In this document: positions 6,745 through 26,810 of the stretch, in pieces
Layout: each line of letters starts with the position of its first letter
Position numbering within the stretch: the first letter of the stretch is position 1
Source: a virus
Strand: one strand, 5' to 3'
Virus record (IMG/VR): IMGVR_UViG_3300029121_000001
Length of the DNA: 64,000 bases
Program-made: the position numbers and the translations under genes
Notes under the pieces: generated by a model
The model's database searches: none
Told to the model about the DNA's origin: nothing
Seen by the model: only the letters and a program-made list of their open reading frames with translations

Positions 6745-9700
6745 TTACGGTGTAGATGCAAGAGCTTCAACTTTTGCTTTCATATTTCTGAGTTGTTCCA
6801 TAATATTATTTTGAATATCTTGTGCAGAATTATTAATATCTCCAATACTAGACGCAGCACCACCAGCAGAAGATGCTAGTTGTGCAATAGATCCCATATT
6901 GTTAATAATGCCATTCAAAATACTTGCAATAGCAGGTAGAGAACTGTTATTATTAGTATTTTGAGTAATCTGTTCTAGATATTTAATAATAATATCAAGT
7001 TTTTCAACATCAGACAAACTAGAAGTATTAACTGTAGTTGCTACAGTATCAATATCAGAAGCAGAGCCTCTAGACAAAGCTTTCTTTCTAACTACAGTAG
7101 GAGTAGAAGAATGGTTAGGATTGGTGAAATCATGAGTAATAGGAATCTTAGTATTCTTAGTAGAAGAACCACTTCCAGATCTACGTGCAGCCACAGCAAT
7201 AGCTTCTTGATCAAGACGGTCAAGTGCACTACCAGTACCATGTAGAGCACTATATACCTCTTCAGCACCCTTCTTACGAACAGGATACCAAGTCTTATTA
7301 GTCTTAGCTTTTTCCATACCCAGACTAGGCATTTCATAATTTCCAAGTGCTGCAGCAGCTGCATCAGCAGGAGTTTTTGCACTCATTAGATTATTATATG
7401 CCTTAGTATACTTACCAGAATTTTTCAATTCATCATAAGCAAAATCAACCTGAGTATTTAGATCACCAACAGAAGTTCCCTTACTCTTAGCAAAAGCGAG
7501 TAGATTATGCTTACGATTACCGCTTCTAGGATTGCTATTGGCACCAGTCCACTGAGCCAAACCATATCCAACATCATCGTTAGCTTTATCAGGCCACTTA
7601 TTGTTAGAGTCTACATAATTAGTGTATTCTTTATCGCCGCCATACTTCTTTTCGAATTTGTTCTCAAGATTCATAGGATTGAAATTAGACTCGTTTTTCC
7701 AACAGCCCATAAGACCAGAAATACCAGTCTCACTCATTCCTTTACTCTTAAGACGTTTCCAGATAGCTTTAGCATTATCACTTGCATTTCCAGCATTAGG
7801 AGTAGCTACAGAATTATGGGAAGCATAGTATTCCTGAACAGCAGGATTATAAACAAATCCAAGGAATCTATACTTGGAATTTCCGCCCCAGTTTCCATCA
7901 CTACCCCTCTTACGAGATTTATACTTAAACTTGAAGGAGCTAAATCCAGATTCAGAATCCATAAGTTCATCACTGGAAATAACTTTCTCAACAACAGCAA
8001 CATGGCCAGCTCTACCAACAGTACTAGCCCAAACCATTATTGCACCTGCCTGAGGAGTAGAACCTGTTTGTAGACCAAATTTAGAAGCAAGAGCATACAT
8101 CTGTCCAGCATCTGCATGGAAGTCTCTATACCTCATGGTCTTTTCGCCCTTCATAATACTATAGATATGGTTAAAACGACCGCATGCCCAACCAACACAG
8201 TTAGAAAGAACTGAACAAGTAGGATCAGTAGGATTACCAAGTCTACAATTACTCTGTCCACCATGACTTTTAGTATTATAATAAGAGATGTAAGGATCAT
8301 TTGCCTTAGGCATTTCAGTACAGATCGGGAAAGGAGAATCTCCTGTGTATACATAGCCACCACCAGAAGAACTAGTGTCTCCATAGCTATATCCAGAAGA
8401 ATCGCCACTAGTAGAAGAGTTATTAAAGCCATTAAAAATAGTATTAACGATGGTACCAAATGTTCCACCAACTTTATTTGCTATTGCATTGAATCCTGCA
8501 CTAATACCGGTATTAATAATAGTAGATACATCCATACCACTATTACTAGTAGTAGAAGCTGTAGAACTATCAACATCAGAATCTCCACCTGCAACAACTC
8601 CAAGTTTAGTCTTCTGAAGAATACTCTTCTTATAGAGAGCAGTTCCCTTTAGTTCAGGATCATCAACAATAACATTTCCATTCTTATCCTTGCCTCTTGC
8701 CACAATGTAGTGAGGATTAGGTCCAAACGGACTATTGGTTTTAGATTTGTTTCCATCATCTTCACCAAGAAGAATAGTAGGTTTACCAGAAGAAATAGCA
8801 GAATTAATATCAGTCCTATTATCAGTATACTTAGTATCAATTCCATTTCTTCCAAGGATATCTCCAAAATAAGATGCATTAGTACCACGTTCAGATTTAG
8901 TGCTACCTGCAACATATCCCATCTTCTCAGCATATTTAGCAGTATCTGTAATATCAGTATTCTTGCCAAAAGCTTTCAAGACGGTAGATGCAACAGCAGG
9001 TCCACATCCATCTTGATCAATAGTGCTATTACCAAATTTAGTGAAGTTACCCTTTTGTGTTGTATGGATATCAGATCCAGATCCATTAAAGAAACTGAAA
9101 ATACCTTTCTTTTTCTTCTTAGAAGATTCGATCTTAGCTTTAGCGAGTTTAGCTTGATATGCCTTCTGGGAAGCACCAGATCCAGAGCCATACTTTGCAC
9201 CAGATGCTTCTTTGTTCAGATCAATATTAGATTTACTTGCAGATAGATTATCTTTTGTATCATCCTTACTAGTATCTTTATTCTTTCCTGTGAAGAAATT
9301 CTTGATATTAGTTACAGTTTTTCCAACAAAAGACTTAAACTTATCCTGAGTAGTACTCTTTCCAAGTACGTTATAAACATACTCTTCTACGTTATAAGTG
9401 TGGCCAGTTTCCTGGTTATAAGCTTCAACTGTTGCTTTAGCATCGGCTCTCTTATCAGCAAGAGTACGTGTTAGTCCCTTAAGAAAACGAGATAGAACAT
9501 TGAATACAATGTTAAAGATAGTAGTAGAACTAATAATGCCTCCAATACCAGGAATAGCGTAATTGATACCATTAACAGCAGCAGCTACACATCTTTCAGC
9601 AATAGTAGGCTTTTCAATAATTCCAAGGATACTCATAGCACGGGCATCTTCAAAACCATCTTCAACAGCTAGAGCAATCTGTCCTATATAAATAGCACCA

Positions 9701-12700
9701 GCAATCTTACTAAGAACACCAGTTACCTTAGATCCAGCCTTACCAATTGCTTGTGCAATCTGTTCAGCACAATCATCAATCCAACTAGTATCTTTACCTA
9801 GTTTCTTAGCTACGAAATTAAGTACAGCACGAACAGCACCCTTGCATTTATTTGCAATTTTTGCCATTATTTCAGCGTTCTTACTAACACCAACAGCAGC
9901 ATCAGGATCAATAACTTTAGTAGCAGCTTTATGTGTGAGTTTATCAACACCCTTTTTAAATACATCTCCTACTTTAGATGCACCCTTAAAAGGAGCAGCT
10001 ATTACTTTGCCAAAAGTAGTCTTACTAATAGCTGTTGCTGCTTTTCCAATACCAGGAATCTTACTAATAGAAGTTGCTAATTTTGCACCAGATAGAGCAG
10101 GATTATTACCAAAACTTAGTAGAGCATTTGTGGCAATTCTCTTCTTAAATCTATCAGAGAAGAAAGAAGATACATGATCATCTTGCTCATATGTAGTCAT
10201 CTTTTTGCCAGTAGCACTGATTTCAAAACGATCTACACCAAGTTTTGCTCGCTTCAGAATTTTTCCTATTCCTTTAACTTCCTTCTGGCGTTCAGTAGGA
10301 TCCATTCCTTTGCGCATTCCAGAATCTGCATCTGTTCCAGCAGCTTGTCCACCAAGATAGCTTAATCCTATAATGGTTGCAGCAGATCCTAAAATCGTAG
10401 GAAGATGTGCTATTATAGTTTTACCGAAAGTTCCTCCTAGGAAAGAAGTTATACCATCAAAAATCTTACCGAATAACCCAGAAGCTTTATCCTTAACAAA
10501 ATCAAGTATGGAAGATTTTTTCTCTCCATCTTCATCTGTTTTGCCAATACCGAAAATATCCTTGAATTTATCAAAGAAATTTCCTCCGACAAACATACCA
10601 AAGAATTTGTCCTTTAACTCAGAAGCTTTTCTCTTAGCTTTAATAGCAGCATTAGTAACAGCATCTGCAAGATTAGCAATCCATTCACCCTTAGTATTCC
10701 TTGTATACTGAATTGGATTGCCTTCATCATCAAGAACTGTCTTTGTATTGCCATCTCCACTACTAGCATTATCTCCTGTTGATTCTCCACCTTCCTGAAT
10801 AGGAGCAGAAGAATCACCTGTTACCTTTTTGGTAGGATCTTTAGCTCTATTATTACGGATAATCTCTCTGACTTTTCCTACTTCGATTCCTAGTTTCAAT
10901 GCAATACGCCAATCATTAACACCAGTATTATGAAGGCGCATAACCTCTTTAATAGTGTCTGTTGTAATGATCGTATTATTGCTATTGTTTTCTTTAGGCT
11001 TAGTATTTTCTCCAGCTACTTTTTCTGCTAACTTTTCATATTCTTTCTTAACCTCTTCTGCTTTCTTCTCCATTTCCGTAGAAGGCTTAGAAGAAGTAGT
11101 GTCCTCTTTATTTTCAGGAGGAACTACTCCTGCAGGAGTAGTAGAAGTTTCTTTAGCAGCATCAGCTATAGTAGCTTCTGTTGCAGTAGCAGGTTTCTGC
11201 TCTTTGCTTTCTGCTTCTTCAGTCTGCTTTTCTCCAGTAAGAGATTCAAGAATACCAGAAATCTTATCAGAAATAGTATCTAGAATGGTATTACGTTCAA
11301 TATCGAGTTTATCTACAGCCTCAGTAGTTGCTTCACCAGGTGTAACATTAGCTTTATTATTCAGAGCTTCTCTAGCAGCATCTTCTTTCTTATGAATACC
11401 AGCAGCATCCATACGAAGTTGCATACGAGTACGACGTAGCTCTTTCTTACTCATCTTGCTAATATCAAGACCACTTTCATTGAAGAATGTTTTCTTCTTT
11501 TCACCATAATCTTTAATATCAGCATCTATTTCGTTTAGTCTTTTAACCTCTGCTTCGATTTTTTCTGTCATCGATTTTTTAGTTGTTTCATCGAGGTTAG
11601 AATTTTCAATCTCTGCAATAACGTCGCTATAGTCATTATTATTTTTCTTATGATAATTCATAAGTTTAGTAATAGACTTAGCGAGTTTCTGGTCAGGACC
11701 GTTACCACCATGAGGAAGAGTTCCTACTAGAGTATCTCTTAGATTTTGACGAATCTGATGCTTTTCCTGCTTTAGAACAGTAGGACCATTAAGAGCAGCA
11801 TTTGCTGTCTTAATCATCTTATCACGTTCTTCTCCACTGTATTTAAGCTCCCAATCTGTCAATGCAGATTTTCTAACTTTTTTTCTTCCAGTGAAGAATT
11901 TATATCCAGAATTCTTTTCAATATCATCTCTCTCTTCTGCAGACAGAGAAGAATATCCTTTATTGATATTATGTCTTTTTAAAGCATCACCTGCGGCTCC
12001 CATAAGTTTAAAAGGAGCAGTGATAATAGCTTTGCCAACACCTAAAGCTTTTTTAGCAATCCATTTACCAGCCGTAGCTACAGGAGCAAATAGAGCATCA
12101 AATTTTTCACCAATAGTACGTCTTACAACATCCTTGGCACTGTCTACTATAGACATCATGATGCTCTTAGATTTACCCTTGACCCAATCAGTAAGAGGAT
12201 CAAACAGTCTCTTTATAGGACTAAAGAAATTCTTTTTCGCAAAGTTCTTAATTTTTTCAATACCGTTTTCAGTAAATTCTGCTAGAGGATCTATGACACG
12301 AGTTTGAATAGAACCAAGAATACCACCATGTCTTTCTCCGTTCAGTCCTTCTTTACCGAACATTGCAGATTTAAAAGTTTCAGTATCCTTAACAAGTTCA
12401 ATACCGGCACCAAGTACAAATCCACCCATGACACCACCAGGAGCAAGTCCAATGGTTCCAAGAATTGCACCAAGTGCACCAGCTTTACCCATATCAGGAA
12501 CTTTTTCTGTGATAAATTTCTTAGCTCCTTTAGGAAGAATTCCCTTCTTAATCAGATTCTCGTGATCATCATATTTTCCAAATAGAGCTTCTGATAGAGC
12601 CGTTGAATTGTTAACAATAACAGCACCAGATCCTAGAACAAGGCCACCAAGAAGTCCTAATCCAGACCCAGTTAATGCTGCACCTGCAAGTGCACCAAGA

Positions 12701-15700
12701 CTACCAGCTGCTGCTACCTTAGGAAGATCAACCTTAGCAGCTCTAACAATTTCATTTCCTGTTTTCTTTAGATCTTTGTAGATATCATCTCCACCAAGGA
12801 AATAATCCATGGCTTCTTTGAGTTTGCCCTTGCCATAATCAACACCGGATTTAATAGATTGACCAACAGGAGAATTGAGGAATTCACTAGAATAATGAGC
12901 AGTTTTTTCTTCTGCCCATTTAGCATATCCAGAAAGTACTTTTCCACAATCATTGATCTTTTCTTTTACTTTATTATTTTTTCTTGCATCACTGATATAT
13001 TCAACAATTTCAGGAGATACACCAACACCATCAGCAATATATTGAACAGATCTTCCACGGTTAAGTAAAGTGTTAATCTGTTTAGCTTGTTCTTCTGTAA
13101 TATCATTAGGTTTGGGTTCTTTTTCTTCAGGCTTATCTTCAACAGTGCCACCTTCAGCAAAACTACCAAAGAAGGTACCACTATTTCCACCAGCTTTTCT
13201 CCAAGCTTTATAATTTCTACGTTCAATAGCCTTACGCTGTTCATCAGTTAAAGCACCATGATACATAGGATTATACTTAGCAGGAATAATCAATTCACCT
13301 TCAGAAACAGAAACCATTCCAGATTTTCTGACCTGTCCACCTTTATAAGATCCTTCAGGTTTTGCATCATTATTAGGAATAGGAGGAGCTACTTTATCAG
13401 GATTCCATGCAGGAAGTTGAAACTTGGTAGATGCTACAGGAACGTCTACATATTCCTGTTTACCGTCTTTATTAGTTTTTAAAACTCTTGCTTTAAATTT
13501 ATGCTCTTCAAAAGGCTTTTCTTCTTTAGGTTTACCAATCTTAAAATGCTCTTTAATATATTTTAAAGTACCATCTACTTGTCTATCAGCATACTGTGCA
13601 GTACCTCTTACAAAGCTAGCGAGAATATCCTTATTGGCTTTAATATATTTTTCACCAAAATTGGTTTCTTGAAACTTCTTCCAAAGCTCATCTGCTTTTT
13701 TAGCAAATCGCTCAGGGAAATCATATATAGCATCACTAATACGAGAAGGAAGATTAAGCATATATCCAAAGAATCCGCCATCTTCATCTACTTGCTCTTT
13801 AAGTTTAGTGCCAAGATCACCAAACATAAAGTTTTCCATTAGATCATTAATCTGATCAATAATGAAAGATCCAACAGTAGATTCTTCTTTAGCCTTATTC
13901 TTTTTAAATAATAGGCTACCACGGCTCTCTGCCTTAGGCTTTTCATACTGCTTAGTTTCAGGATTATAAACGTCTCTACCTTCAGAATCTATAACAGTAA
14001 AACCTCTCTCCGTAACTTCTTCAGAAGTTACGGGTTTCTTTACTGTTTTATTAGCATAAATATTAATATTATCAGGAGCAGTATATTGATTTAGATCAAA
14101 TCCATATATAGATCTTGAAGGGTTAGCAGGGGCAGGCTGTGCAGAATTACCAGAACTTGAAAGTTGTGGCTGCCCACTAGATCTTCCATTTCTATGAAAT
14201 GCTTCAGTAATTCTACTAAACAATCCACCATTGTTAGGAGGATTAGTTGTATTCTTACCACCAACAATATTATCTTTAACTTTATCGAGATCAAATTGCA
14301 TGGCAGACTGGAAGTCTACCATCATTCTGATATTTTTATAGAAATCCTGAAGATAGAAGAATACATTATTTCCAAGATTATCTTTTACATTAAAGATATT
14401 ATTCTTATCAGAGTTTAGATTGTTAGTATACTTGTGAGTATTAGCAAGGCCAGATCCATTTGCAATATTGCTAAATGTACTATCAGATTCACTAATCTGA
14501 TCAACAAATTTAGCATTTGCAAGTTGTCCTTGATACACACCATTATACAGCTTTCCAACACCAGATTTTTTCTTAAAAATCAATCTATCAAGAGCTACAA
14601 TGCTCTTATAATTCATCGGATACTTAGATTGATCTCCAGAATTACCAATCCAGCCTTGAGCAACACAGAATTTTACAATATCTCCAGTCTTATGAAATCT
14701 ACCAGGTTCTACTCCCTTAAGAGTCAAGAAAGACATTAGTTTATCATAATCTTTGCTCAAGGATCTAACAGCTCTACTGTTTTCGGTATAACTAATATGG
14801 CCAGGAGTATTTCTATGAATTTCATTATCTTCAGAAATGAAATCATTGATCAATTCCCTCTTCATTCCTCTACTAGCATTACCAATAACTTCTTCTCTCT
14901 TCTTTTTAAAATCATTAACAGATCTACTAGCAGTAACAAATCTACCAGTTTCATAATTAAAGATTTTAGCTTCTTTACCAGAAAGAAGTGCTTCAATGTT
15001 AGCCAGATAAGTAGGAATAACTTCTCTCAAAGCTTTACTATCTTTACCTGTCCAATCTACTCGTCCCTTGTTGTAATTGCCAAAATCCATCTTAGGTTTA
15101 GTTTTAGGAGTAATATCCAAAAACTTAGCAATTGTAGCAAAGAATCCATCACCCTTTGCATATTCATGCATACGGCCAGCAATCTTCATCATACCATCTC
15201 TAAGAATAGAAACAGTTCTATCAAGCGCTTTACCAGTAGGACCATTCTGAATCTTAGAAGTAAGAGACATAGTAAGAGCAGTAGCAATAGGAGATGCTAG
15301 ACCACCACCCTTGATCAGCATATTGATCATATCAGGGCTTAGAACAGCTGCTAGAGAGTCTAGATCATATTCTTCCATAAATTTCTGAGTAGCAAACTTG
15401 CCCCATTCACCAAGGTCAGGAAGATCTCCTCCCATAACTTTTTCCCAAGGAGTTTGCTTTCTAGATCTAGCAGATTCAGTAGATTTAGGAGAAAATCTAT
15501 CAGTAAGCAAATTCTTAATATCTTCTAGATATTTAGTTTGTTTAGCCATTTCTTCACTAGTCTGCTTGAAGAAAGTATCAGCATTTAGTGCCAAACTATT
15601 AACAGGTTTAACAATATCAGTGTGAAGATTAAGAATAGAAGAATTGATGACAGACAGAGAATTATTCATCATACCGAATAGTCTCTGATTATTGAGCATC

Positions 15701-16239
15701 ATATTTCTGCTATTCTTAGTAGCATTACCAGCAATCTTTCCAGCAACTGCTTCAGAAGTAATTAACTGATGATACGACAATTGATTTCCTAGGCCATGAA
15801 TGGCTCCAGTAATCTCAGAAGACTCATTATCACTAGAAGATTCTTCTTCCTTATTATCATTATCATCGAAGTCAAAATCTTCATCATCAAAATCAAAGCC
15901 TGTCATACCCATTGATTCTGCAAAAGCACCAATGGCAGCATCTTCTCTTTCTGCATTATAGAACTTACCAGTCTTAAGGTCATCGAGAATATTTTTCTTG
16001 ACATCTTTCAAAGAGTCAAGGTTCTCTTCACCGACCATTTTACCAAGTTCATTTCTAACAGTACCTTTGAAATCTTTCACTGCATAATACATGTCTTTTG
16101 CAGCAGATACATTATCAGAAATGTAATTGGTTAATGTAGGATTGACACCTTTGGCAGTCTCAGTAGCAACATACTTAATGGATTTCAATACATTCTTGGC
16201 ATATGTATTGGGATCCACAAAGCCAAATCGATTAGCCAT
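6745..16239 (-). CDS. giant tape-measure-like tail protein (3164 aa) with C39-like cysteine peptidase, CHAP and phage-tail-lysozyme domains
   Basis: Uninterrupted 9.5-kb ORF. Gly/Ala-rich hydrophobic segments (AAAGSLGALAGAALTGSGLGLLGG). C39-like region: DQDGCGPAV..PHYIVARGKD. CHAP: NCVGWACGRF..AGHVAVVEKV. Tail lysozyme: GCWKNESNFNP..YGLAQWT..QVDFAYDEL. Confidence 0.9.
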   Translation of the reverse strand: MANRFGFVDPNTYAKNVLKSIKYVATETAKGVNPTLTNYISDNVSAAKDMYYAVKDFKGTVRNELGKMVGEENLDSLKDVKKNILDDLKTGKFYNAEREDAAIGAFAESMGMTGFDFDDEDFDFDDNDNKEEESSSDNESSEITGAIHGLGNQLSYHQLITSEAVAGKIAGNATKNSRNMMLNNQRLFGMMNNSLSVINSSILNLHTDIVKPVNSLALNADTFFKQTSEEMAKQTKYLEDIKNLLTDRFSPKSTESARSRKQTPWEKVMGGDLPDLGEWGKFATQKFMEEYDLDSLAAVLSPDMINMLIKGGGLASPIATALTMSLTSKIQNGPTGKALDRTVSILRDGMMKIAGRMHEYAKGDGFFATIAKFLDITPKTKPKMDFGNYNKGRVDWTGKDSKALREVIPTYLANIEALLSGKEAKIFNYETGRFVTASRSVNDFKKKREEVIGNASRGMKRELINDFISEDNEIHRNTPGHISYTENSRAVRSLSKDYDKLMSFLTLKGVEPGRFHKTGDIVKFCVAQGWIGNSGDQSKYPMNYKSIVALDRLIFKKKSGVGKLYNGVYQGQLANAKFVDQISESDSTFSNIANGSGLANTHKYTNNLNSDKNNIFNVKDNLGNNVFFYLQDFYKNIRMMVDFQSAMQFDLDKVKDNIVGGKNTTNPPNNGGLFSRITEAFHRNGRSSGQPQLSSSGNSAQPAPANPSRSIYGFDLNQYTAPDNINIYANKTVKKPVTSEEVTERGFTVIDSEGRDVYNPETKQYEKPKAESRGSLLFKKNKAKEESTVGSFIIDQINDLMENFMFGDLGTKLKEQVDEDGGFFGYMLNLPSRISDAIYDFPERFAKKADELWKKFQETNFGEKYIKANKDILASFVRGTAQYADRQVDGTLKYIKEHFKIGKPKEEKPFEEHKFKARVLKTNKDGKQEYVDVPVASTKFQLPAWNPDKVAPPIPNNDAKPEGSYKGGQVRKSGMVSVSEGELIIPAKYNPMYHGALTDEQRKAIERRNYKAWRKAGGNSGTFFGSFAEGGTVEDKPEEKEPKPNDITEEQAKQINTLLNRGRSVQYIADGVGVSPEIVEYISDARKNNKVKEKINDCGKVLSGYAKWAEEKTAHYSSEFLNSPVGQSIKSGVDYGKGKLKEAMDYFLGGDDIYKDLKKTGNEIVRAAKVDLPKVAAAGSLGALAGAALTGSGLGLLGGLVLGSGAVIVNNSTALSEALFGKYDDHENLIKKGILPKGAKKFITEKVPDMGKAGALGAILGTIGLAPGGVMGGFVLGAGIELVKDTETFKSAMFGKEGLNGERHGGILGSIQTRVIDPLAEFTENGIEKIKNFAKKNFFSPIKRLFDPLTDWVKGKSKSIMMSIVDSAKDVVRRTIGEKFDALFAPVATAGKWIAKKALGVGKAIITAPFKLMGAAGDALKRHNINKGYSSLSAEERDDIEKNSGYKFFTGRKKVRKSALTDWELKYSGEERDKMIKTANAALNGPTVLKQEKHQIRQNLRDTLVGTLPHGGNGPDQKLAKSITKLMNYHKKNNNDYSDVIAEIENSNLDETTKKSMTEKIEAEVKRLNEIDADIKDYGEKKKTFFNESGLDISKMSKKELRRTRMQLRMDAAGIHKKEDAAREALNNKANVTPGEATTEAVDKLDIERNTILDTISDKISGILESLTGEKQTEEAESKEQKPATATEATIADAAKETSTTPAGVVPPENKEDTTSSKPSTEMEKKAEEVKKEYEKLAEKVAGENTKPKENNSNNTIITTDTIKEVMRLHNTGVNDWRIALKLGIEVGKVREIIRNNRAKDPTKKVTGDSSAPIQEGGESTGDNASSGDGNTKTVLDDEGNPIQYTRNTKGEWIANLADAVTNAAIKAKRKASELKDKFFGMFVGGNFFDKFKDIFGIGKTDEDGEKKSSILDFVKDKASGLFGKIFDGITSFLGGTFGKTIIAHLPTILGSAATIIGLSYLGGQAAGTDADSGMRKGMDPTERQKEVKGIGKILKRAKLGVDRFEISATGKKMTTYEQDDHVSSFFSDRFKKRIATNALLSFGNNPALSGAKLATSISKIPGIGKAATAISKTTFGKVIAAPFKGASKVGDVFKKGVDKLTHKAATKVIDPDAAVGVSKNAEIMAKIANKCKGAVRAVLNFVAKKLGKDTSWIDDCAEQIAQAIGKAGSKVTGVLSKIAGAIYIGQIALAVEDGFEDARAMSILGIIEKPTIAERCVAAAVNGINYAIPGIGGIISSTTIFNIVFNVLSRFLKGLTRTLADKRADAKATVEAYNQETGHTYNVEEYVYNVLGKSTTQDKFKSFVGKTVTNIKNFFTGKNKDTSKDDTKDNLSASKSNIDLNKEASGAKYGSGSGASQKAYQAKLAKAKIESSKKKKKGIFSFFNGSGSDIHTTQKGNFTKFGNSTIDQDGCGPAVASTVLKAFGKNTDITDTAKYAEKMGYVAGSTKSERGTNASYFGDILGRNGIDTKYTDNRTDINSAISSGKPTILLGEDDGNKSKTNSPFGPNPHYIVARGKDKNGNVIVDDPELKGTALYKKSILQKTKLGVVAGGDSDVDSSTASTTSNSGMDVSTIINTGISAGFNAIANKVGGTFGTIVNTIFNGFNNSSTSGDSSGYSYGDTSSSGGGYVYTGDSPFPICTEMPKANDPYISYYNTKSHGGQSNCRLGNPTDPTCSVLSNCVGWACGRFNHIYSIMKGEKTMRYRDFHADAGQMYALASKFGLQTGSTPQAGAIMVWASTVGRAGHVAVVEKVISSDELMDSESGFSSFKFKYKSRKRGSDGNWGGNSKYRFLGFVYNPAVQEYYASHNSVATPNAGNASDNAKAIWKRLKSKGMSETGISGLMGCWKNESNFNPMNLENKFEKKYGGDKEYTNYVDSNNKWPDKANDDVGYGLAQWTGANSNPRSGNRKHNLLAFAKSKGTSVGDLNTQVDFAYDELKNSGKYTKAYNNLMSAKTPADAAAAALGNYEMPSLGMEKAKTNKTWYPVRKKGAEEVYSALHGTGSALDRLDQEAIAVAARRSGSGSSTKNTKIPITHDFTNPNHSSTPTVVRKKALSRGSASDIDTVATTVNTSSLSDVEKLDIIIKYLEQITQNTNNNSSLPAIASILNGIINNMGSIAQLASSAGGAASSIGDINNSAQDIQNNIMEQLRNMKAKVEALASTP

Positions 16240-18194: not shown

Positions 18195-18458
18195 TTAAAT
18201 ATAATAAAGCGTAGATATAGTGCACTCCATTATAATTATTCCAGAAGCATTATAAGCAAGTGCCATTATATATGAATCTATTTGTGTTAACATACATTTA
18301 TATCTTATTACTTTCATATTTAATGAATATCCAATCATAGTTCCAGAAGCTAAATAATAACAGTATTCATTAAAGTTACCATATTGATTATTTATCTGTG
18401 TATATACTGTTTTTATATCAGATAATTTATGTATAATATTTTTCTGAGAAGCGTCAGA
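18195..18458 (-). other. start-less ORF cassette A3 (87 codons, SDASQKNIIHKL..ISTLYYI*)
   Basis: Frame opens at TCTGACGCTTCT of the junction repeat. No start codon and no RBS upstream. Ends at TAA 18195-18197. Confidence 0.55.
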
Positions 18459-18464
18459 TTTATT
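18447..18464 (-). repeat. junction repeat copy (AATAAATCTGACGCTTCT)
   Basis: Identical 18-mer to the copy at 18700-18717. Confidence 0.9.
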
Positions 18465-18474
18465 TGATAATATA

Positions 18475-18711
18475 TTAAATATAGAATATTCTTACATTAT
18501 ATTTTGCTAAAATAATATCATGTGCGTTTAAGTCAATATTAAATGCAGCGATTCCATATTGTGAATTACTAATGTAATATATGGATACATATGGAAGTCC
18601 AGATATAGAATTCACATCTTTACATACTGCAGATATTACAGTTCCATTTTTAAAAGTTTTTAGTTCTGGGATATACATATCTATATATTTAATTTTAGTA
18701 GAAGCGTCAGA
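18475..18711 (-). other. start-less ORF cassette A2 (78 codons, SDASTKIKYIDMYIPEL..RIFYI*)
   Basis: Opens at the junction repeat, in the same frame as the end of A1. No SD before its internal Met. Confidence 0.55.
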
Positions 18712-18717
18712 TTTATT
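18700..18717 (-). repeat. junction repeat copy (AATAAATCTGACGCTTCT)
   Basis: Read directly from the sequence. Follows the TAA that ends cassette A1. Confidence 0.9.
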
Positions 18718-19638
18718 TTATCTTATCATTATAAGAGGGAAAACTCCTTTACTACCATAATACACAGGTGCATTAGCAACTTTTACTTCAGATCCAGATG
18801 CAATATACCATGGCATATCATAACTGTGTCCTCCTTGAGGATAGCTATTGTTTGATAATCCACGTAAGAAGCCATCTCCAAATTACCAAGTAGTAAAATT
18901 AAAATATGGTAATTTATAATTAGCTTCACCATCATCATATTTGTTGTTATTAGAAGCAAATTTACCAGTAATTTGTCCAGCACTCATTAATGTACAATAT
19001 GCATTTGTCCAAGCATAACCTGTATTAGTAAGATTGCCATTGACATATTCAGTTTTATTAGATAATAATACCTTTCTTTTAACTAAATGATTATAAAAAA
19101 TAGATTTTTTCATCAATATATCAGCTGTAGTTGAATTCAAATCTTTATGCACACCTGTACTTACATATCCAGTATCTTCAAATATCATGCCATTTGATGA
19201 TTTATAAAGAGGTTCTGTAGGAATCATAAATATACCATATCCATTATCATATGGTGTTCCATCTGAAGCAGTTTTATTATGTTCACAATCAAAACCTACA
19301 ATAACCCATTTCTTATTGTAAGTACCATCTTTAATAGTTATTGTAGAACCAATAGAAGCACCATAATAACCTGTAAAATTACTACATCTAATAAGAAAAT
19401 CATCTAGATCAATAGTAGTTTCATCATGATTAATGGATAATGTGCCAAGGTCTTGAACTTTATATCTAGTATTAGGAGTAGAAGTATCAATAGGAAGATT
19501 TTTTACATCTCCTAGTATTTTAATAATAATAGATTGTATAGTTGTATTTTTACTAAATTTACTTTTAGCAGGAATTCCTCCAACTGTGTATCTTGTTACA
19601 ATATCATTCTCTAATATTAAATTAGTAGAAGCGTCAGA
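18718..19638 (-). other. start-less cassette A1: lectin-like receptor-binding module, paralogue of 23361-24227, with an in-frame TAA at 18883-18885
   Basis: Opens TAA TAA TCT GAC GCT TCT directly after a terminator. SDASTNLILENDIVTRYTVGG..WTNAYCTLMSAGQITGKFASNNNKYDDGEANYKLPYFNFTTW * FGDGFLRGL..LIMIR* is colinear with the locus B module. Confidence 0.6.
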
Positions 19639-19643
19639 TTATT
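19627..19643 (-). repeat. junction repeat copy (AATAATCTGACGCTTCT)
   Basis: Identical 17-mer to the copy at 24445-24461. Abuts the poly-T of the upstream terminator. Confidence 0.9.
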
Positions 19644-19656
19644 ATAAAAAAAAAAT

Positions 19657-19686
19657 AAAAGGGAGTAGATTTCTCCACTCCCTTTT
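19657..19686 (-). terminator. rho-independent terminator after the 19691 gene
   Basis: AAAAGGGAGT..ACTCCCTTTT hairpin followed by a 10-nt T-run on the minus strand. Confidence 0.7.
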
Positions 19687-19690
19687 ATAA

Positions 19691-20136
19691 TTATTCTTCG
19701 CCTTCTTCCCATTTATGATGACGCTCTTCTTCGAGCATCCTCTCGTTAATAGACTTTGGAAGTCTCTTCATACGAGATACATTGGTGATATACAGCTTGC
19801 TATCATTACCAAGCTCAACAATGTACTTGCATTTTGCATTGAATACGGGAGGATAAAATTGCGTCCAGCCTTTATCAAACAAGTACTGATAGCAGTACCT
19901 ATAAATCTGGCGCATAGTAGCACCAGATTTTGCATTGCCATGATTCACCATATGGCGAAGCATGGCGGAATATTTTTTACCCTTACGGGTAAAAATCAGG
20001 TTGATATCATGCTTTTCATGCTCAAAAGGAGCACGCGCATGGCATTCATGGCTTTGTCAAATTCCTCCCAGTACTTATCTTCATCACTGATACAAGTAGT
20101 GTTGATATCGTTCATATTGTTGTTCATGTTAGCCAT
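19691..20136 (-). pseudogene. split hypothetical gene: a 46-codon ORF with a strong RBS overlaps the -1 frame of the 90-aa ORF (frameshift, programmed or not)
   Basis: AAGGAGG RBS + ATG at 20136 opens MANMNNNMNDINTT..; TGA at 19996-19998. The frame of ORF 19691-19963 is open from 20056. The two frames overlap by 61 nt (19996-20056). Confidence 0.45.
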
Positions 20137-20338
20137 AATAAAGTCCTCCTTATAGACTTCCAATATAATAAAATATTCTTCTAAGAAGGAATATATTTAT
20201 CCTTCTTATCACTTTTATACTATACAAGTGAAATATTTAAATTGTTAAAAAAATAAACCAGTAGAGATTTCTCCCTACTGATATTTTTAATTATACATAC
20301 ACTACTATTATCTCATTAGTATTATTGCGCAATTAATA

Positions 20339-20587
20339 TTAGTGAGATTTAATAACATTAAAGATTCTATCAAACTTAGCAATCTCTTCTTGAGTATAAT
20401 TTTCTCTACCAAGTCTTGCTAATGTATTAGCATTGATAAGAGTATCTCTTTGCATAGAAGCGTTAGCATTAAAATACCCATTATCTCTAGAAATATACAT
20501 AGCATTTCTAGGATTAAATTTCTCCCAAGCAAGACGAATGAAAGTCTGATTCATCGGTACCAAACAATATATAACATCTCCGTCAAA
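20339..20587 (-). CDS. RNA polymerase beta-prime-like subunit (N-terminal-half type), exon 2
   Basis: Frame is open from 20587 and reads FDGDVIYCLVPMNQTFIRLAWE.., colinear with E. coli beta-prime [20 protein letters not shown]. No RBS or start of its own. Confidence 0.75.
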   Translation of the reverse strand, partial: FDGDVIYCLVPMNQTFIRLAWEKFNPRNAMYISRDNGYFNANASMQRDTLINANTLARLGRENYTQEEIAKFDRIFNVIKSH

Positions 20588-21129
20588 CCTAAATCGGACA
20601 CTTTAGGAAAGTTAAAATTGAAATAAGCGAATCTTATGTCATTCATGTACCCTTACACATGAAATATTTAAAATTGCTTAAAACTGCATATTTTAACTTT
20701 TCTTTTAATTTAGCGATCATATCTTTATCCAGTAAAGATTCTGCAATTCTTTATTTATCTGGATATATATCGTTTCGATTTAAATGGATTTATCTGCTGC
20801 CTCAGTACCATACCTATATAATATAGGCTCTACATAATGATCTGTGGGCACACTCATTTCTGAGCTTCGCTGCTGGTTGTCAATTTTATACTATAATAGT
20901 ATTGATCTTTAAGGAACTTAATTTTCATTAAGCTTTTATTGCATCCTAGATCATCCTGTAAATTCTTTCTGACTTTCGTCGGCTTTCACGCTTACCATTG
21001 CTAGTTACGTTGTAGCTTTACAGGCATTATGGTTTTCCAGCAATTAGATATATTAGCGACTCTAAATTACTTTAGAGAAGGGACTTCTGTGGTGATATTA
21101 TATATTATAAATAGCACCACTGCTATTTA
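20588..21129 (-). ncRNA. group I-like intron (542 nt, no ORF) inside the beta-prime NADFDGD motif
   Basis: 5' exon ends ..GCGGAU and the intron ends ..CCGAUUUAGG. An internal GTCC can pair with exon GGAU. R-like CACAGATCATTATG and S-like AAGATATGATCGC can form a P7 helix, GATCAT/ATGATC. Stops in all frames. Confidence 0.6.
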
Positions 21130-22554
21130 ATCCGCAGCCAAAAATTTCAAGATCTGCAGAGGAACTGCTAGAGTATAGGTATTAGTAATTCCAACACAGA
21201 ACATTTGCAGAATAGAGCCATAAGCAAGTGTAGGATTTCGGCCAATTATTACCGGTAATCCACGCATACCTTTATGCTTAAAATCATCAATGATAGATTG
21301 AATAATCGTATTGATCTTTTTATTAGGCTCAATAGTAGCTTTATACCAGATATCATGAGCTTCTGTTGGAGTCATACCATGCATACGGCAAAGAATATTT
21401 TTAATTCTCTGCTCAAGCATAACAGTCAGAGCAACTGCAGGCATTGTAATTTCATCAATACGAAGATTGGGATTTTGAACGATAACACAACGAGAAGAGA
21501 AGTTATACCGTCCACCGAGAAGACATCTAAAATCACCTTTCTTACCAGCAAGGATATTAATTTGCTCTGAATAAATATCCATAAACTTCTTCTGGAGATT
21601 ATAAAGCTGCTGATTCTTGATCTTAGGTTCTCTCTGAATAGCAGTCTTATTCTTGTTGATAGAAGTTGCTAGTTTATTGATCATGGCATACATTGCATTT
21701 GTAGGCTCATATGTCATGTTATTTCCATCGATATCAAAAGGACGAAGTAGAGTAGTAATAACAGGAAGAGACGATGAGAATACAGACTCTCTAGCTTCAT
21801 AAATAGCATCATAATAACTCTTCTTATTAGGATACTTTTTAATATAATAATCCATAATCTCATCGAATCTTTCAGTGAATTCTATCATACCAATTCCAAA
21901 GAAAGGTTCATCCTTAAGCTTAGGATCATCTCTAGACATCGTATTGAGAACAAGTTGAGTATCTGTGACATCAAGAATATTCTCAAGCTTAGTACGCTTA
22001 TTACCTTGAATATAGATGCCCTTACCAAGAATAGATTCAATATAGATATAGAATGTAGGATGAATAAACTTATATGGTTTAGATAATTTAATCCAACCAC
22101 AATACTTGAAGTTATCATCTACATATGTGCACAAGTGCCCACATTGAGGACAGCGAAGACCATAATTAATACGTCCTCTAAGTCCTCCTTCTTTACATCT
22201 ACAACGATACCTATCCATAAAAGGATTAGTATCAGCAAGAGTCTGTCCAAACTTTGGAGAGAAGATACCATCTTCTGCACGAAGATCTTTCTTGATGTTA
22301 CGTCCTGCAGGTTCTACAATAAAGCCATTGCCTTCACGAAGATCATCTTCACAAGCTTTATCATAATTAATGATCTCAAGCTTACCAGAGAATTCATATT
22401 TATCAGAATGAGGATAAGTTTTACTGGTAGACATAAGATCATTAAGATGAGGCTTAAGGAAATTAAATTCCTGTTGATGCTTCATCTGATATTCGATATT
22501 GTAATCGTGGAGTTGTTTATAGTTGCTAGTGTCAACATTATATTTCGTTTCCAT
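21130..22554 (-). CDS. RNA polymerase beta-prime-like subunit (N-terminal-half type), exon 1
   Basis: Zn-ribbon CRCKEGGLRGRINYGLRCPQCGHLC; NPTLAYGSI..LAVPLQILKFLAAD ends at the first Asp of the catalytic loop. TAAGGAGG RBS present. Confidence 0.8.
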
Positions 22555-23360: not shown

Positions 23361-24350
23361 TTACCTAATATAAATAAGCGGACGAAGACCGAGCCTGCTA
23401 TAACAGAGGTTCCAATCTGGTTTACCAGAATTTGAAATACCATAGACATAGTTATTGCCATAACTTTTACTGCATATTCCACGCAACCAAGCCCAATTAT
23501 CAAAACTCCATGTTTCATAATTGAATAATGGTAGTTTATAATTAGCTTCTCCATCATCGAATTTATTACTAGTAGAAGCAAATGTGCCAGTTACTTGTCC
23601 TGTACTCATTAACGTGCAATATGCATTAGTCCATATATAACTATTAGCACAATAATTAGAATCTCTAGAAGTACTCAATAGAACATTACGTAGTACAAGA
23701 TGCTCACCAAGTACTCTCTTAAGGTTATCTGCAACTTCAGATAATATAGTCTTATTTATAGCAGATCCATTATATCCTTTTTCAGTAGAACTAGAATCCC
23801 ATACTACACTACCTAAACTCCTCCTAGGTATTAAACATATACCATATCCATTATCATTAGTATTTCCATCAGATGCTGTTTGATTGTGTTCCATATCGAA
23901 ACCAGCAATAATCCATTCTTTATTATATACATCATCTTTAATAGTAACATAACTACCAATAGTAGCACCGTAATAACCAGTATCATGGCAACATCTATAA
24001 AGAAAGTAATCTATATCACTAACATTAGACCAAGTCCCAAGATCCTGAGACTTATAACGTGTATTAGGTGTAGAAGTATCAACCGGAAGTTGTCCACTAT
24101 CTCCTAGCATTTTAATGATAATAGATTGTATAGTATCAGTTGCAGAGAATTGAGATCTTTTAGATATACCTCCAACAGTATATCTAGTATTATAAATTTG
24201 GACTCCAAGTTTATTAGAAGCGTCATTCTTATTAAATATATATGATGTTTGCATGGCAGTCATCAGTATAAGATGACGCTGTACCATTACTCCAGTGTCT
24301 AATCCATCTATAATATAATTTTCCGTTATTTTGATAAATCCAATCAGCAT
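23361..24350 (-). CDS. lectin-like (C-type-lectin/DUF1566-like C-terminus) receptor-binding tail-fibre module (cassette B2); true 5' end uncertain
   Basis: 329-codon ORF, but the ATG at 24350 has no RBS. Homology to cassette A1 starts at the junction repeat (NDASNKLGVQIYNTRYTVGG from 24227). C-terminus: ..WAWLRGICSKSYG..YSRLGLRPLIYIR*. Confidence 0.55.
   Translation of the reverse strand: MLIGFIKITENYIIDGLDTGVMVQRHLILMTAMQTSYIFNKNDASNKLGVQIYNTRYTVGGISKRSQFSATDTIQSIIIKMLGDSGQLPVDTSTPNTRYKSQDLGTWSNVSDIDYFLYRCCHDTGYYGATIGSYVTIKDDVYNKEWIIAGFDMEHNQTASDGNTNDNGYGICLIPRRSLGSVVWDSSSTEKGYNGSAINKTILSEVADNLKRVLGEHLVLRNVLLSTSRDSNYCANSYIWTNAYCTLMSTGQVTGTFASTSNKFDDGEANYKLPLFNYETWSFDNWAWLRGICSKSYGNNYVYGISNSGKPDWNLCYSRLGLRPLIYIR
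24216..24233 (-). repeat. junction repeat, variant copy (AATAAGAATGACGCTTCT)
   Basis: Shares AATAA and TGACGCTTCT with the other four copies. Marks the start of A1/B2 homology. Confidence 0.8.
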
Positions 24351-24456
24351 CGTTTCTTACGTCATCTAATATATCAAATCCTATTATAGTACCATTTAAT
24401 GTATATCCAGATTTTGTGATATAAATATTATAAAGCTTCTTTATAGAAGCGTCAGA
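24232..24456 (-). other. start-less ORF cassette B1 (74 codons, SDASIKKLYNIYITKSGYTLNG..HANIIYI*)
   Basis: Opens TAA TAA TCT GAC GCT TCT directly after a terminator. No start or RBS. Ends ..YI* like A2 and A3. Confidence 0.55.
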
Positions 24457-24461
24457 TTATT
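24445..24461 (-). repeat. junction repeat copy (AATAATCTGACGCTTCT)
   Basis: Identical 17-mer to 19627-19643. Confidence 0.9.
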
Positions 24462-24500
24462 AAAAAATAAAAGGAGTGAAGATTTTACTCTTCACTCCTT
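24458..24500 (-). terminator. rho-independent terminator after the 24506 gene
   Basis: 12-bp stem AAGGAGTGAAGA / TCTTCACTCCTT, then TTTTATTTTTT on the minus strand. Confidence 0.8.
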
Positions 24501-24505
24501 CTAAA

Positions 24506-25711
24506 TTATTTCTTATATTCCATTTCGTAGAAACTCAAATCATACGGATATGGAACTTTTGGTTTACAGTTTCTATCACAGTATCCACAAGATTTGGATT
24601 GTCCACTTAACACTGAAGACAATATAGGAATATTAAAATTGCCACAATCGCACTTGCAAATTACTCGTTGATACAAACTTGGTTTATTAATGCTTATATC
24701 TTCTGGGTTATAAATATATGCTGCTTTGATTATAGTAAGTTTTCCATGATGTTCACCTTTATAAATTTTATCAACAGCAGATGGAGTTGATTTCTGATAC
24801 TTCTTACCACACTTGTCGCAAGTAGTTCTCTGCAGTTTACCATTCTCTAATTTTGTAGATACATATCCTCCACAATCACATTGACATACCACATTAAAAT
24901 GAGAAATCGTGCGATCATATCCACTAATTACAGGTACTGCTTGTACGATTCTAAGTTTTCCATACTTCCTTCCAATCAATTTAGGTGTATATTCTTTTGC
25001 ATAGCAGTATACGCATTCACCATATTTTTTATTCCAGGCAAACAGTACATCTTTGCAATCAGTATATGCATTACCACATTTAATACATTTAAATGTACAC
25101 TTATCGAGATCTTTTGTAACACTAATAAGTTTAAGTCTTGAAATACGTCGTTCAAGATCCATTCTGCATTGAATTTCCATCAATTCATCGCACTTAGTGC
25201 AATTGGGATATACAGATAGTGCATTATTTAGTGTAATACGATTGACTTCACCACAAGAATGAACTGTATAGACATATGTGGTATTCATCAATTTAATGAT
25301 GTTGTCACTGGTAAATTCACATTCTACTTTATCATATCTCCTATCATCTCTAGAAAGATTTCCAATAATCTGACACCATCCAAATGCCTGATGGTCTTGA
25401 GCCCAGATATATCCTACGTATTCATTAGGATCAAAGATGTTGTCACACTCCTCTTTAACGATGAATGTATTGGACTTGCTAGCTTCAAGTATAGCATTGA
25501 ATGCATCTTTTGAATTATCAATACCATATACATTAGAATCATATGCGCTAATATAGAGATTGATATATTTATCACTTGTAATAAAGTAATGCCCTTTTGC
25601 TTTTATGGAAAATATCATTTCTCTATTTAAGCCAATTCCAATGAATAGTGTATTAGGAAAATACTTATAGATACTTTCCATATACTCGATAACCTTTTTC
25701 TTGTCAATCAT
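24506..25711 (-). CDS. zinc-ribbon repeat protein (401 aa), function unknown
   Basis: Start moved to the ATG at 25711 (AAAGGAGTAGTTAAA ATG). C-terminal modules: RKYGKLRIVQ..VVCQCDCGGYV..CDKCGKK and EHHGKLTIIK..VICKCDCGNF..CGYC. Same module as the 1126-1884 protein. Confidence 0.8.
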   Translation of the reverse strand: MIDKKKVIEYMESIYKYFPNTLFIGIGLNREMIFSIKAKGHYFITSDKYINLYISAYDSNVYGIDNSKDAFNAILEASKSNTFIVKEECDNIFDPNEYVGYIWAQDHQAFGWCQIIGNLSRDDRRYDKVECEFTSDNIIKLMNTTYVYTVHSCGEVNRITLNNALSVYPNCTKCDELMEIQCRMDLERRISRLKLISVTKDLDKCTFKCIKCGNAYTDCKDVLFAWNKKYGECVYCYAKEYTPKLIGRKYGKLRIVQAVPVISGYDRTISHFNVVCQCDCGGYVSTKLENGKLQRTTCDKCGKKYQKSTPSAVDKIYKGEHHGKLTIIKAAYIYNPEDISINKPSLYQRVICKCDCGNFNIPILSSVLSGQSKSCGYCDRNCKPKVPYPYDLSFYEMEYKK

Positions 25712-25758
25712 TTTAACTACTCCTTTTTTAAATTGTATGATAGGACAACTTCTTCCTA

Positions 25759-25781
25759 CCATATTTATAATATATATTCAT
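25759..25781 (-). promoter_or_regulatory. candidate promoter motif GAATATATATTATAAATATGG
   Basis: ATATATTATAA box about 48 nt upstream of the 25711 start. Confidence 0.3.
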
Positions 25782-25787
25782 TTCATA

Positions 25788-26762
25788 TTAAAAGTAAATA
25801 TCTCTATTAAAAGCCTCTTTAAAACTCGCTTTAACTTTACTGCTATTCACATTACAATAAATCATAGTAGTCTCTAATTTGGCATGCCCGAGAACTTCTT
25901 TAATCTGTTCTACAGGCATTCCTCTATCCATTAGATGAGTTGCACAAGTTCTACGGAATCGGTGAGGATGTACATTCTCTACTCCAGCTCTATCACCAAT
26001 ATCCTTAAGAATTAATTCTGCACCTCTTGGAGTCAATCTATGGCCATTTGAAAGATGTGTGAATAAAGGTTGATCCGGTTGAGCATAACGTTCTTCTAAA
26101 TATTCTTGTAAGTATTTCATACAATTATTACTTAGATAAACAACTCTCTCCTTATGACCTTTACCAAATACTATAACTTCGCCTTCATTGAAGTTGATAT
26201 CTTTTACATTAAGACTAATAACTTCAGCAAGTCTAGTTCCAGTAGAATATAGAAATTCAACAAATGCTTTATCTCTTTTATTAGTACATTCTGCTCTAAG
26301 AGCATCCATCTCAACATTAGAGAAAGCTTTCTTGATTTTCTTTTCACACAATACTCTTTCAATTTTATTAGTAGGATTTTTCTCAATGAATTCTTCATTT
26401 ACAAGAAATTCATAAAAAGAGCTAATAGCTCTAATCTTAGTCTGTAATGTAGCAGCTTGAAGATTTCTTGCTTTAACCATATAGGCAAGATAATCCTTCA
26501 TATCTGCAGTAGTAATGTCTAAATAACTCTTTCCATTATAGTACTTAGCCATTGCTCTAACTTCTGTTACATATCCGGTCAAAGAAGATGGTTTTAGTCC
26601 TACTAAACTTTTCTGTTGTATGAAGCGTTCTATCAACTCTTCATTTGGTAGAGCGGTTCTAGATGTTCTTAGAATTGTATCCAGAACGTTTTTCAATTTA
26701 GCTAGTTGAATTTCATTTAATTCTGGTCCCATCAATTTTAGGATCATCTCTATATTAGTCAT
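25788..26762 (-). CDS. tyrosine recombinase (phage integrase / XerC-XerD-like family)
   Basis: N-terminal SAM-like domain (..IRAISSFYEFLVNEEFIEKNP). Catalytic region: STGTRLAEVISLNVKDI, GKGHKERVVYL, HPHRFRRTCATHLMDRGMPVEQIKEVLGHAKLETTMIYCNV (R..H-x-x-R..H..Y). Start set at the ATG at 26762, after GGAG. Confidence 0.9.
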   Translation of the reverse strand: MTNIEMILKLMGPELNEIQLAKLKNVLDTILRTSRTALPNEELIERFIQQKSLVGLKPSSLTGYVTEVRAMAKYYNGKSYLDITTADMKDYLAYMVKARNLQAATLQTKIRAISSFYEFLVNEEFIEKNPTNKIERVLCEKKIKKAFSNVEMDALRAECTNKRDKAFVEFLYSTGTRLAEVISLNVKDINFNEGEVIVFGKGHKERVVYLSNNCMKYLQEYLEERYAQPDQPLFTHLSNGHRLTPRGAELILKDIGDRAGVENVHPHRFRRTCATHLMDRGMPVEQIKEVLGHAKLETTMIYCNVNSSKVKASFKEAFNRDIYF

Positions 26763-26810
26763 CGCTATATCTCCAATCACAATTAATGTACATTAAGGAG
26801 GACTTTTCAA

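Follow-up and report, generated by a model that had tools for sequence, protein, structure and literature searches.

Start-less reading frames in a human-gut jumbo phage probably form a store of exchangeable tips for a tail-fibre-like protein

What purpose can be served by a row of open reading frames (ORFs) that possess neither a start codon nor a ribosome-binding site (RBS)? The question is raised by a 64,000-nucleotide stretch of viral DNA (IMG/VR virus record IMGVR_UViG_3300029121_000001; hereafter the window, 64 kb in all), in which locus A (18,195 to 19,643, minus strand) carries three such frames, A1 to A3, each opened by a common short sequence. A first-pass annotation, made from the sequence alone, had read them as silent, promoter-less C-terminal cassettes of a shufflon-like kind. 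The analysis of the window and of related loci suggests that the start-less frames are probably a store of swappable C-terminal tips for a tail-fibre-like protein, within a switching system that is shufflon-like and in part integron-like. The relatives used for comparison are human-gut jumbo phages of 250-277 kb, whose loci are labelled L and whose proteins are labelled P.

All three cassettes first described at locus A were found. To these were added a second array at 23361-24461 on the minus strand, comprising cassettes B1 and B2, and an extension of A1 past an in-frame TAA to 306 codons. The features of the two arrays are the following.

19655-19688, minus strand: intrinsic terminator of the gene upstream of array A, with a 15-pair stem and a T-run; array A begins right after the T-run
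19627-19644, minus strand: site copy 1, TAATAATCT GACGCTTCT (= TAATAATCTGACGCTTCT), whose codons S-D-A-S open cassette A1
18718-19638, minus strand: cassette A1, a large C-terminal module of the type targeted by diversity-generating retroelements (DGRs), a 306-codon unit
18700-18717, minus strand: site copy 2, AATAAATCT GACGCTTCT (= AATAAATCTGACGCTTCT), ahead of cassette A2
18475-18711, minus strand: cassette A2, 78 codons, no start or RBS, ending ..RIFYI-stop
18447-18464, minus strand: site copy 3, AATAAATCT GACGCTTCT (= AATAAATCTGACGCTTCT), ahead of cassette A3
18195-18458, minus strand: cassette A3, 87 codons, no start or RBS, ending ..LYYI-stop
24468-24503, minus strand: intrinsic terminator of a Cys-rich gene; array B begins right after it
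24445-24461, minus strand: site copy 4, AATAATCT GACGCTTCT (12-mer at 24456-24445), ahead of cassette B1
24232-24456, minus strand: cassette B1, 74 codons, no start, ending ..NIIYI-stop
24216-24233, minus strand: site copy 5, with a variant left arm, AATAAGAAT GACGCTTCT (AATGACGCTTCT at 24227-24216), which opens cassette B2
23361-24227, minus strand: cassette B2, an intact DGR-target-type module, silent here, 288 codons, ending ..GLRPLIYIR-stop

As first annotated, the T-run of the terminator (hairpin 19688-19655) leads on the minus strand into the site and a start-less frame of 251 codons (19638-18886), and the 18-mer recurs at 18717-18700 and 18464-18447, where it opens frames of 78 and 87 codons that end in YI and a stop. 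The first in-frame ATG of A1 is at about codon 138 (ORF 18883-19227), and no usable start lies upstream. The 251 codons are followed by the in-frame TAA (18883-18885), a further 54 codons and a stop at 18718-18720. Over its whole length A1 shares 59% identity with B2; where A1 has the TAA, B2 has Ser, and B2 and all homologues read on at this point. A1 is probably a defective silent copy, although the TAA may otherwise be an assembly or sequencing error. Homologues of A1 elsewhere occupy an expression site. The annotated ORF for B2 (329 amino acids, aa) begins at an ATG within the out-of-frame overlap with B1, with no Shine-Dalgarno sequence, and B2 is thus effectively start-less.

The cassettes are mutually dissimilar, and their common parts are the 5' site and a loose ..YI-stop ending only. 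The two parts of A1 and A2 lie in one frame with TAA codons alone between them; A3 is in a different frame from A2. No model in Pfam, PHROGs or NCBIfam matched any cassette, a megablast search of GenBank phages with the window gave no match, and a 14-mer scan of viral contigs gave chance matches only. At 33% GC, with ~7.5% stops per random codon, an open frame of 75 codons would arise by chance with p ~0.003 (estimated from base composition), which argues that the cassettes are maintained as coding sequence.

Four exact copies of the 12-mer TCTGACGCTTCT are present in the 64 kb, on the minus strand only; shuffled sequences contained a mean of 0.02 copies and never four. The junction was originally described as identical. 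Identity holds for this 12-mer in four copies, but the invariant part of the site is T-GACGCTTCT, with only partly conserved flanks, TAAWMT to its left and ATTAA to its right. The codons of site copy 5 read N-D-A-S, the same as at the expression sites of relatives. GACGCT alone has nine occurrences in the window, five of which are the cassette sites.

Across 479 kb of related loci, GACGCTTCT was present ahead of start-less ORFs in 112 copies and at N-terminal junctions in 10 more. The ORFs behind the 112 silent sites are mostly of 70-124 codons, with a few of 190-293, and at least 70 open codons are kept at 112 of the 129 non-junction sites. The 88 unique silent sites in relatives give the consensus tAatcT-GACGCTTCT-aTtAAa, in which the T before GAC is invariant; a YI ending is present in 38 of the 88 ORFs. 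In the cassette context D-A-S is written GAC-GCT-TCT in 94 of 101 instances, against an expected ~3%, and in the long ORFs of the window Asp is encoded by GAT in 90% of cases and by GAC in 10%. The few D-A-S variants (GACGCTACT, GACGCTAGT, GACGCTATT, AACGCTTCT) alter the amino acid and spare the GACGCT or ACGCT core. The short in-frame site found at each junction is conserved as a DNA element, against codon bias.

A protein search with B2 returned about 500 relatives from human-gut metagenomes, among them the window's own copy on contigs of ~258 kb. One class, of ~250 aa, begins at an internal Met and represents gene-caller artefacts of start-less copies. The other, of ~425 aa, consists of a conserved 137-aa N-terminal domain, NDAS and a B2-like module (..IYSMNQTLTSL-NDAS-NKLG..). 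In relatives the motif therefore lies at codon 137-140 of an ATG-started gene (..IYSMNQTLTSL-NDAS-), with the fusion-point peptide ..MNQTLTSLNDAS/cassette. The first-pass annotation had named as a candidate expression site an ORF with a proper start and a motif copy at its 3' end, and this arrangement was thus found in related genomes. A search with the N-terminal domain identified ~60 proteins of 205-244 aa in which the domain is 80-99% identical and is followed, after NDAS, by mutually unrelated tails of 70-105 aa. The domain is joined to dozens of different cassettes in relatives. Homologues of B1 are fused to it in at least 10 proteins (e.g., P0178, 64% identity, from a 249.7 kb relative), a homologue of A3 (58% identity) in P0134, and A1/B2-type homologues in the ~425-aa proteins. 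Furthermore, cassettes that are silent in L119 form the expressed tail in P0122, P0125 and P0138. No fusion of A2 to the N-terminal domain was found in the sample examined; its homologues are silent in L125, L141 and L143 (same orientation) and in L124 and L149 (inverted relative to the conserved flanks).

The 64 kb contain no coding sequence for the N-terminal domain, in agreement with the earlier statement that the window shows no expression site; the constant segment is present in relatives only, alongside several start-less C-terminal segments. As homologous tails are fused to this domain in relatives, the ORFs of the window are best read as silent alternative C-termini whose gene has its 5' part elsewhere, and the ATG-started fusions lend support to the cassettes as first proposed. 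A paralogue of the N-terminal domain that adjoins the locus in relatives matches tail-fibre PHROGs. A scan of 185,579 bacterial genomes (GTDB representatives) did not detect the domain; a prophage in these genomes was rejected as a source, there being no relative in the scan.

The promoter region and the 137 codons form a unit of ~835-944 bp, here termed the N-module, that is bounded by GACGCT in every locus having it. Its left junction is ..TAATCT-GACGCT/ATTACGAAGTAG.. (also given as ..GACGCT/ATTACGAAG..) and its right junction ..CGCTAAAT-GACGCT/TCT-cassette (..CTAAAT GACGCT/TCT..), the slash marking the breakpoint, which lies within the same 6 bp in every N-module. N-modules were found at three loci.

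Locus E1, beside the recombinase and fibre genes: L119, L120, L124, L128, L130, L132, L134 and L150
Locus E2, between the prohead-protease cluster and the RNase H gene: L123 and L151
Third locus, inside a further cassette array of mixed orientation: L138

A short contig, L152 (MEGAHIT contig k141_685194, 1085 bp), has identical ends of 141 bp. As this terminal overlap is exactly k = 141, L152 represents a 944-bp circle or a tandem repeat. Its junction, AAAT-GACGCT-ATTACGAAG (AAAT-GACGCT-ATTACG), is the exact product of recombining the two flanking GACGCT repeats, and the contig aligns end to end with integrated N-modules. The same junction was observed in a linear context in L153, so tandem integration occurs, and the proteins ending ..NDAITK-stop (P0151 and P0180) are translations across the circle or tandem junction.

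An inverted site is present ~160 nt upstream of the N-module ATG (L151 9835-9843, L123 9835-9843, L138 4878-4886). Inversion between this and the junction site would flip the promoter and the N-terminal codons to give a tip-less ..NDAS-YSLQS-stop, an arrangement that could serve to turn the gene on or off. The window corresponds to positions 77,928-141,927 of JGI contig Ga0495776_079947 (258,080 bp). Its last 0.7-1.1 kb are matched by L123 and L151 at 96.7% and 98.6% identity, respectively, and both carry the N-module ~9.5 kb further on, on the plus strand. By extrapolation, the N-module of the source genome would be expected ~9.5 kb past the window end, inverted relative to arrays A and B and ~50 kb away.

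The earlier statement that all copies are direct is correct for the five sites of the window, and relatives carry inverted copies (L119, L120, L124, L128, L132, L138 and L145). The orientations are 2 minus and 7 plus in L119, 3 and 2 in L120, 7 minus in L124 and 4 minus each in L128 and L132, and are mixed in L138 and L145. Single cassettes are present or absent between genomes that are 97-99% identical (L125 versus L143, L132 versus L142), with both breakpoints inside the site. L120 and L124 have exactly one cassette in common, and two sites bound it. A 3.7 kb segment, containing six cassettes and two fibre genes, distinguishes L145, the closest relative of the region (91-94% identical), from the window; the segment ends lie a few bases at most from the B1 and B2 sites. 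The inverted copies of relatives, the insertions and deletions of cassettes and the circle-like N-terminal unit answer the concern that the window has direct repeats only.

Two genes next to array B bear on how such exchange might be carried out.

25788-26780, minus strand: Xer-like tyrosine recombinase with no arm-binding domain (Pfam Phage_integrase, 2e-40)
24506-25762, minus strand: Cys-rich ORF of 418 aa, rich in CxxC pairs and with no family match, associated with the cassette locus by position

The recombinase scored 220.2 bits with the NCBIfam XerA/integron-integrase model NF040815 (cut-off 220), and 102.6 and 65.8 bits with the NCBIfam integron integrase models (cut-offs 265 and 435), and is not of the IntI type by these models. 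The gene appears intact and syntenic. It lies beside the cassette locus in L119, L120, L121 and L150, has a DNA match in L124-L126, L129, L130, L132 and L145, and flanks the cassette locus in every relative examined. Judged from its position and type, it is most likely the enzyme acting on the sites. In relatives the Cys-rich ORF always separates the recombinase from the cassette locus, and its product could assist recombination as an accessory factor.

The large cassette type has a further association. In L119, L120 and L124 a complete DGR is present, with an accessory gene, a template repeat (TR) and an RVT_1 reverse transcriptase (RT), and its variable repeat (VR) is the 3' end of a B2-like module. 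TR-to-VR differences fall at TR adenines in 15 of 16 and in 9 of 9 positions.

L119 DGR: VR 11146-11267, TR 12229-12350, RT 12276-13790

The annotated RT ORF of these relatives begins inside the TR, and the accessory gene is unusually long (269 aa) with no family match. In the window no RT was found by tblastn, there is no TR or accessory gene, and the sole second copy of the B2 3' end is A1. A DGR inside the window was rejected on these grounds; A1 and B2 are stored copies and not active DGR targets. In the AlphaFold2 model of P0178, a B1-type fusion, the small cassette is predicted with confidence as a compact all-beta domain following a helix (predicted local distance difference test, pLDDT, about 90), and B2 is modelled as a mixed alpha/beta domain (pLDDT 79, predicted template modelling score 0.76).

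The source would accordingly be pictured as a human-gut jumbo phage of roughly 258 kb that stores promoter-less alternative C-terminal domains at loci A (A1-A3) and B (B1-B2), each opening with a ~20-bp site, TAAWMT-GACGCT-TCTATTAA, whose core encodes D-A-S. A cassette would be expressed only after recombination between its own site and the identical one that ends the N-module, which would supply the promoter, the RBS, the ATG and 137 codons ending ..TSL-N-DAS, to yield the N-terminal stalk with a new tip. The exchange point would lie inside GACGCT, and the neighbouring Xer-like tyrosine recombinase would perform the exchange. Inverted sites would give DNA inversion in the manner of a shufflon, and direct sites would give excision and integration of a cassette or of the N-module in the manner of an integron. 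In relatives, the large cassette type (A1, B2) is diversified further by the DGR. We infer that switching is ongoing within populations and that the tail-fibre-like protein is a receptor-binding fibre. A bolder version, in which the moving part is the front end of the gene, is tentative and in our judgement somewhat doubtful. Here the N-module would excise as a circle and re-integrate before any of a dozen or more silent tips at three loci, the logic of an integron reversed, with inversions, the off-switch site and the DGR as additional layers. If true, the mobile front end would amount to a three-tier host-range diversification machine in a lytic-type phage.

Several observations weigh against a tip store that is switched by recombination. 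The N-module is absent from the window, and the expression site of the source genome is placed by extrapolation from L123 and L151. All five window sites are direct, A1 carries a nonsense codon, and ~8 syntenic loci showed no large inversion of the DNA that separates the expression site from the distant inverted arrays. The circle-like contig could be a collapsed tandem repeat and not a free circle. The link between the recombinase and the site is drawn from adjacency and conservation, and the enzyme could instead resolve genome multimers. Fold searches with the fusion protein and B2 gave no significant match to any receptor-binding protein; the matches obtained were weak ones to C-type-lectin-like domains and one to a domain of an IgA peptidase. 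The evidence of rearrangement comes from comparison between genomes and could reflect rare evolutionary events. This last point leads to an explanation in which the cassettes are real alternative C-termini, exchanged by general or microhomology recombination of the phage or host over evolutionary time, with the recombinase in another role such as multimer resolution. We regard this as unlikely. The site and its AT-rich flanks do offer ~15-20 bp of homology, the recombinase is of a generic Xer type and no dyad-symmetric core was evident on inspecting the site consensus. However, an invariant GC-rich 10-mer is kept against codon bias at >100 junctions while the flanks vary, all N-modules break in one and the same stretch of 6 bp, the junction of the circle or tandem is precise, and inverted copies are retained. 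The layout is also that of experimentally supported tyrosine-recombinase shufflons with sites of 10-11 bp (PMC6109161, PMC13596623).

It is far less probable that the frames are decaying remnants, that is, pseudogenes or recombination scars of past modular exchange that are never expressed again. The TAA in A1, the frame-shifted appearance of the gene upstream of A1 and the absence from locus B of the window of the fibre genes, N-module and DGR of relatives would fit such decay, but open frames persist behind most sites in DNA of 33% GC, the site is conserved as DNA, and A3, B1 and B2 have homologues in expressed fusions elsewhere. The decaying duplication raised by the first-pass annotation can apply at most to A1, with its nonsense codon. 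Expression of the cassettes in place, by stop read-through or recoding, non-canonical initiation, trans-splicing or ribosomal bypass, is scarcely credible. The common frame of A1 and A2, broken by TAA codons only, might suggest it, yet A3 is out of frame with A2, terminators stand directly ahead of A1 and B1, and the only tRNAs of the window, Met(CAT) and Leu(TAG), include no suppressor; read-through was rejected for these reasons. An intron or trans-splicing was likewise rejected, as no intron or other RNA family matched at the loci and the fusions of relatives exist in DNA. Recombination of silent tips onto the N-module, by the system proposed above, remains our preferred reading.

The surrounding gene order on the minus strand is the recombinase, the Cys-rich ORF, B1, B2, a dCMP deaminase, a split RNA polymerase (RNAP) beta'-like gene, a small gene and A1-A3, followed by a 55-aa gene, two tRNAs and a 3164-aa virion-type protein. 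This synteny, including the recombinase, is common to all relatives examined, most of which also have Phage_fiber_rpt fibre genes, the N-terminal paralogue and an N-module. The genome is otherwise of a lytic type, with genes for gyrase and for RNA polymerases of its own.

The gene upstream of array A (19691-20135, minus strand) appears to be frame-shifted. An ATG with an RBS at 20135 opens a frame of 46 codons, and the similarity to a 146-aa homologue in L120 lies in another frame, from 20032 to 19724. A segment of ~125 nt upstream of this gene (window 20116-20257) recurs with 87-93% identity beside N-modules or cassette arrays at other loci and may be a shared promoter or regulatory element.

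~125-nt recurring segment in relatives: L136 3231-3355, L137 1638-1771, L138 1-120

The RNAP beta'-like gene (20345-22551, minus strand) is split inside its catalytic AAD/FDGD motif by an ORF-less insert of 542 nt (20588-21129); residues 1-488 are encoded by 22551-21130 and residues 489-569 by 20587-20345, and the gene of L119 is uninterrupted (571 aa). The insert may be a self-splicing intron; no Rfam family matches it. An antisense GACGCTTCT within this gene, with the sense codons KKRPNK, was observed in L119 (15285-15293) and L120 (15272-15280), on the minus strand, and in L125, L128, L141 and L142. It opens no ORF, is absent from the gene copy of the window, and could be due to chance or represent an additional crossover site. 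The 3164-aa ORF (6745-16239, minus strand) is probably a giant virion-associated cell-wall-degrading protein; its homologues carry CHAP, lysozyme-like and C39-like peptidase matches.

To our knowledge, the only described cases of tail-fibre switching by site-specific recombination are small inversion loci of plasmids and temperate phages. The loci described here would extend the same principle to a larger scale in abundant, uncultured human-gut jumbo phages, with >100 distinct tip cassettes across the sampled genomes, several storage loci per genome, direct and inverted sites, an apparently mobile unit of promoter and N-terminus, and a coupling to DGRs. In this way the phage would probably alter the set of bacteria that it recognises and, if the system is active, a single phage lineage could present many receptor-binding tips. 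The prediction of host range from metagenomes is affected, because gene callers mis-annotate the cassettes from internal ATGs or miss them. The system has a bearing on arms races between gut phages and bacteria and on the design of phages with programmable tropism, and the 10-bp site with its Xer-like enzyme would offer a new, compact tool for recombination.

Literature searches turned up no account of this system or, in connection with phages, of the motif, and the loci were compared with known systems of several kinds. The shufflon of R64/IncI1 plasmids uses the tyrosine recombinase Rci and sfx sites to give pilV one N-terminal region and alternative C-termini across short, asymmetric, in-frame sites. 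These features are shared with the present loci; however, R64 has a plasmid pilus adhesin, a single contiguous locus and inversions by Rci only, whereas direct-repeat arrays, insertions and deletions of cassettes and a circle-like product are seen here. Integrons resemble the window in their direct arrays of promoter-less cassettes, each with its own site, in the adjacent tyrosine recombinase, and, as proposed here, in excision as circles with integration next to a promoter. Direct arrays and precise insertions and deletions were observed here, and the only circle-like product is the N-module, possibly in tandem. Unlike the translational fusions at these loci, integron cassettes are whole genes with their own starts; the unit that apparently moves here carries the promoter and N-terminus, and no attC-like hairpin was identified on inspection of the consensus. 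An integron was rejected, as the recombinase fell far below the integrase cut-offs (102.6 versus 265 bits) and the fusions are translational.

Neisseria pilE/pilS and Borrelia vlsE similarly keep start-less silent copies, some of them defective, away from one expression site. They rely on extended homology and non-reciprocal conversion, whereas unrelated cassettes here share a site of 10-20 bp, and extended homology on both sides of the variable part was not found. With DGRs of the BPP-1 Mtd type the likeness is that the A1/B2 module is homologous to targets whose C-terminal VR mutates at TR adenines in relatives; the difference is that the window lacks the RT, TR and accessory gene. Gin of Mu, Cin of P1 and Min of p15B are serine recombinases that serve 2-6 variants. 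The BV01-like Phocaeicola phages have a tail-fibre shufflon with a 10-bp directional motif between cassettes and read-level support for switching (PMC13596623). In all of these phages, as proposed here, the C-terminus of a tail fibre is switched by site-specific recombination, but their loci are small (1.7-4 kb) and operate by inversion only.

Among described systems, the Rin shufflon carried by prophages of Bifidobacterium comes closest (Mavrich et al. 2018, PMC6109161). It has an arm-less tyrosine invertase and a rix site of 11 bp, and combines a constant Rc segment of 168 aa with variable Rv segments of 95-100 aa. Both systems are phage-encoded and have a constant N-terminal segment (137 aa here) of a receptor-binding protein, a probable one in the present case, in frame with promoter-less variable C-termini of comparable length (70-124 aa here), an asymmetric site (a 10-bp core here) and an arm-less tyrosine recombinase encoded beside the locus. 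In contrast to Rin, which has 4-5 segments in one compact locus beside the constant segment and uses inversion only, the present loci have up to ~9 cassettes per array, two or three loci that are kb to tens of kb apart, and many direct repeats. Sites also bound the constant segment, which occupies different loci, one of the cassette types is targeted by a DGR, the genome is that of a lytic-type jumbo phage, and neither the site nor the proteins have sequence similarity to those of Rin. What is new relative to the described shufflons is therefore the scale and multi-locus layout, the direct-repeat arrays with insertions and deletions, the relocating, site-bounded N-module, the coupling to DGRs, and the lytic-type jumbo phage host.

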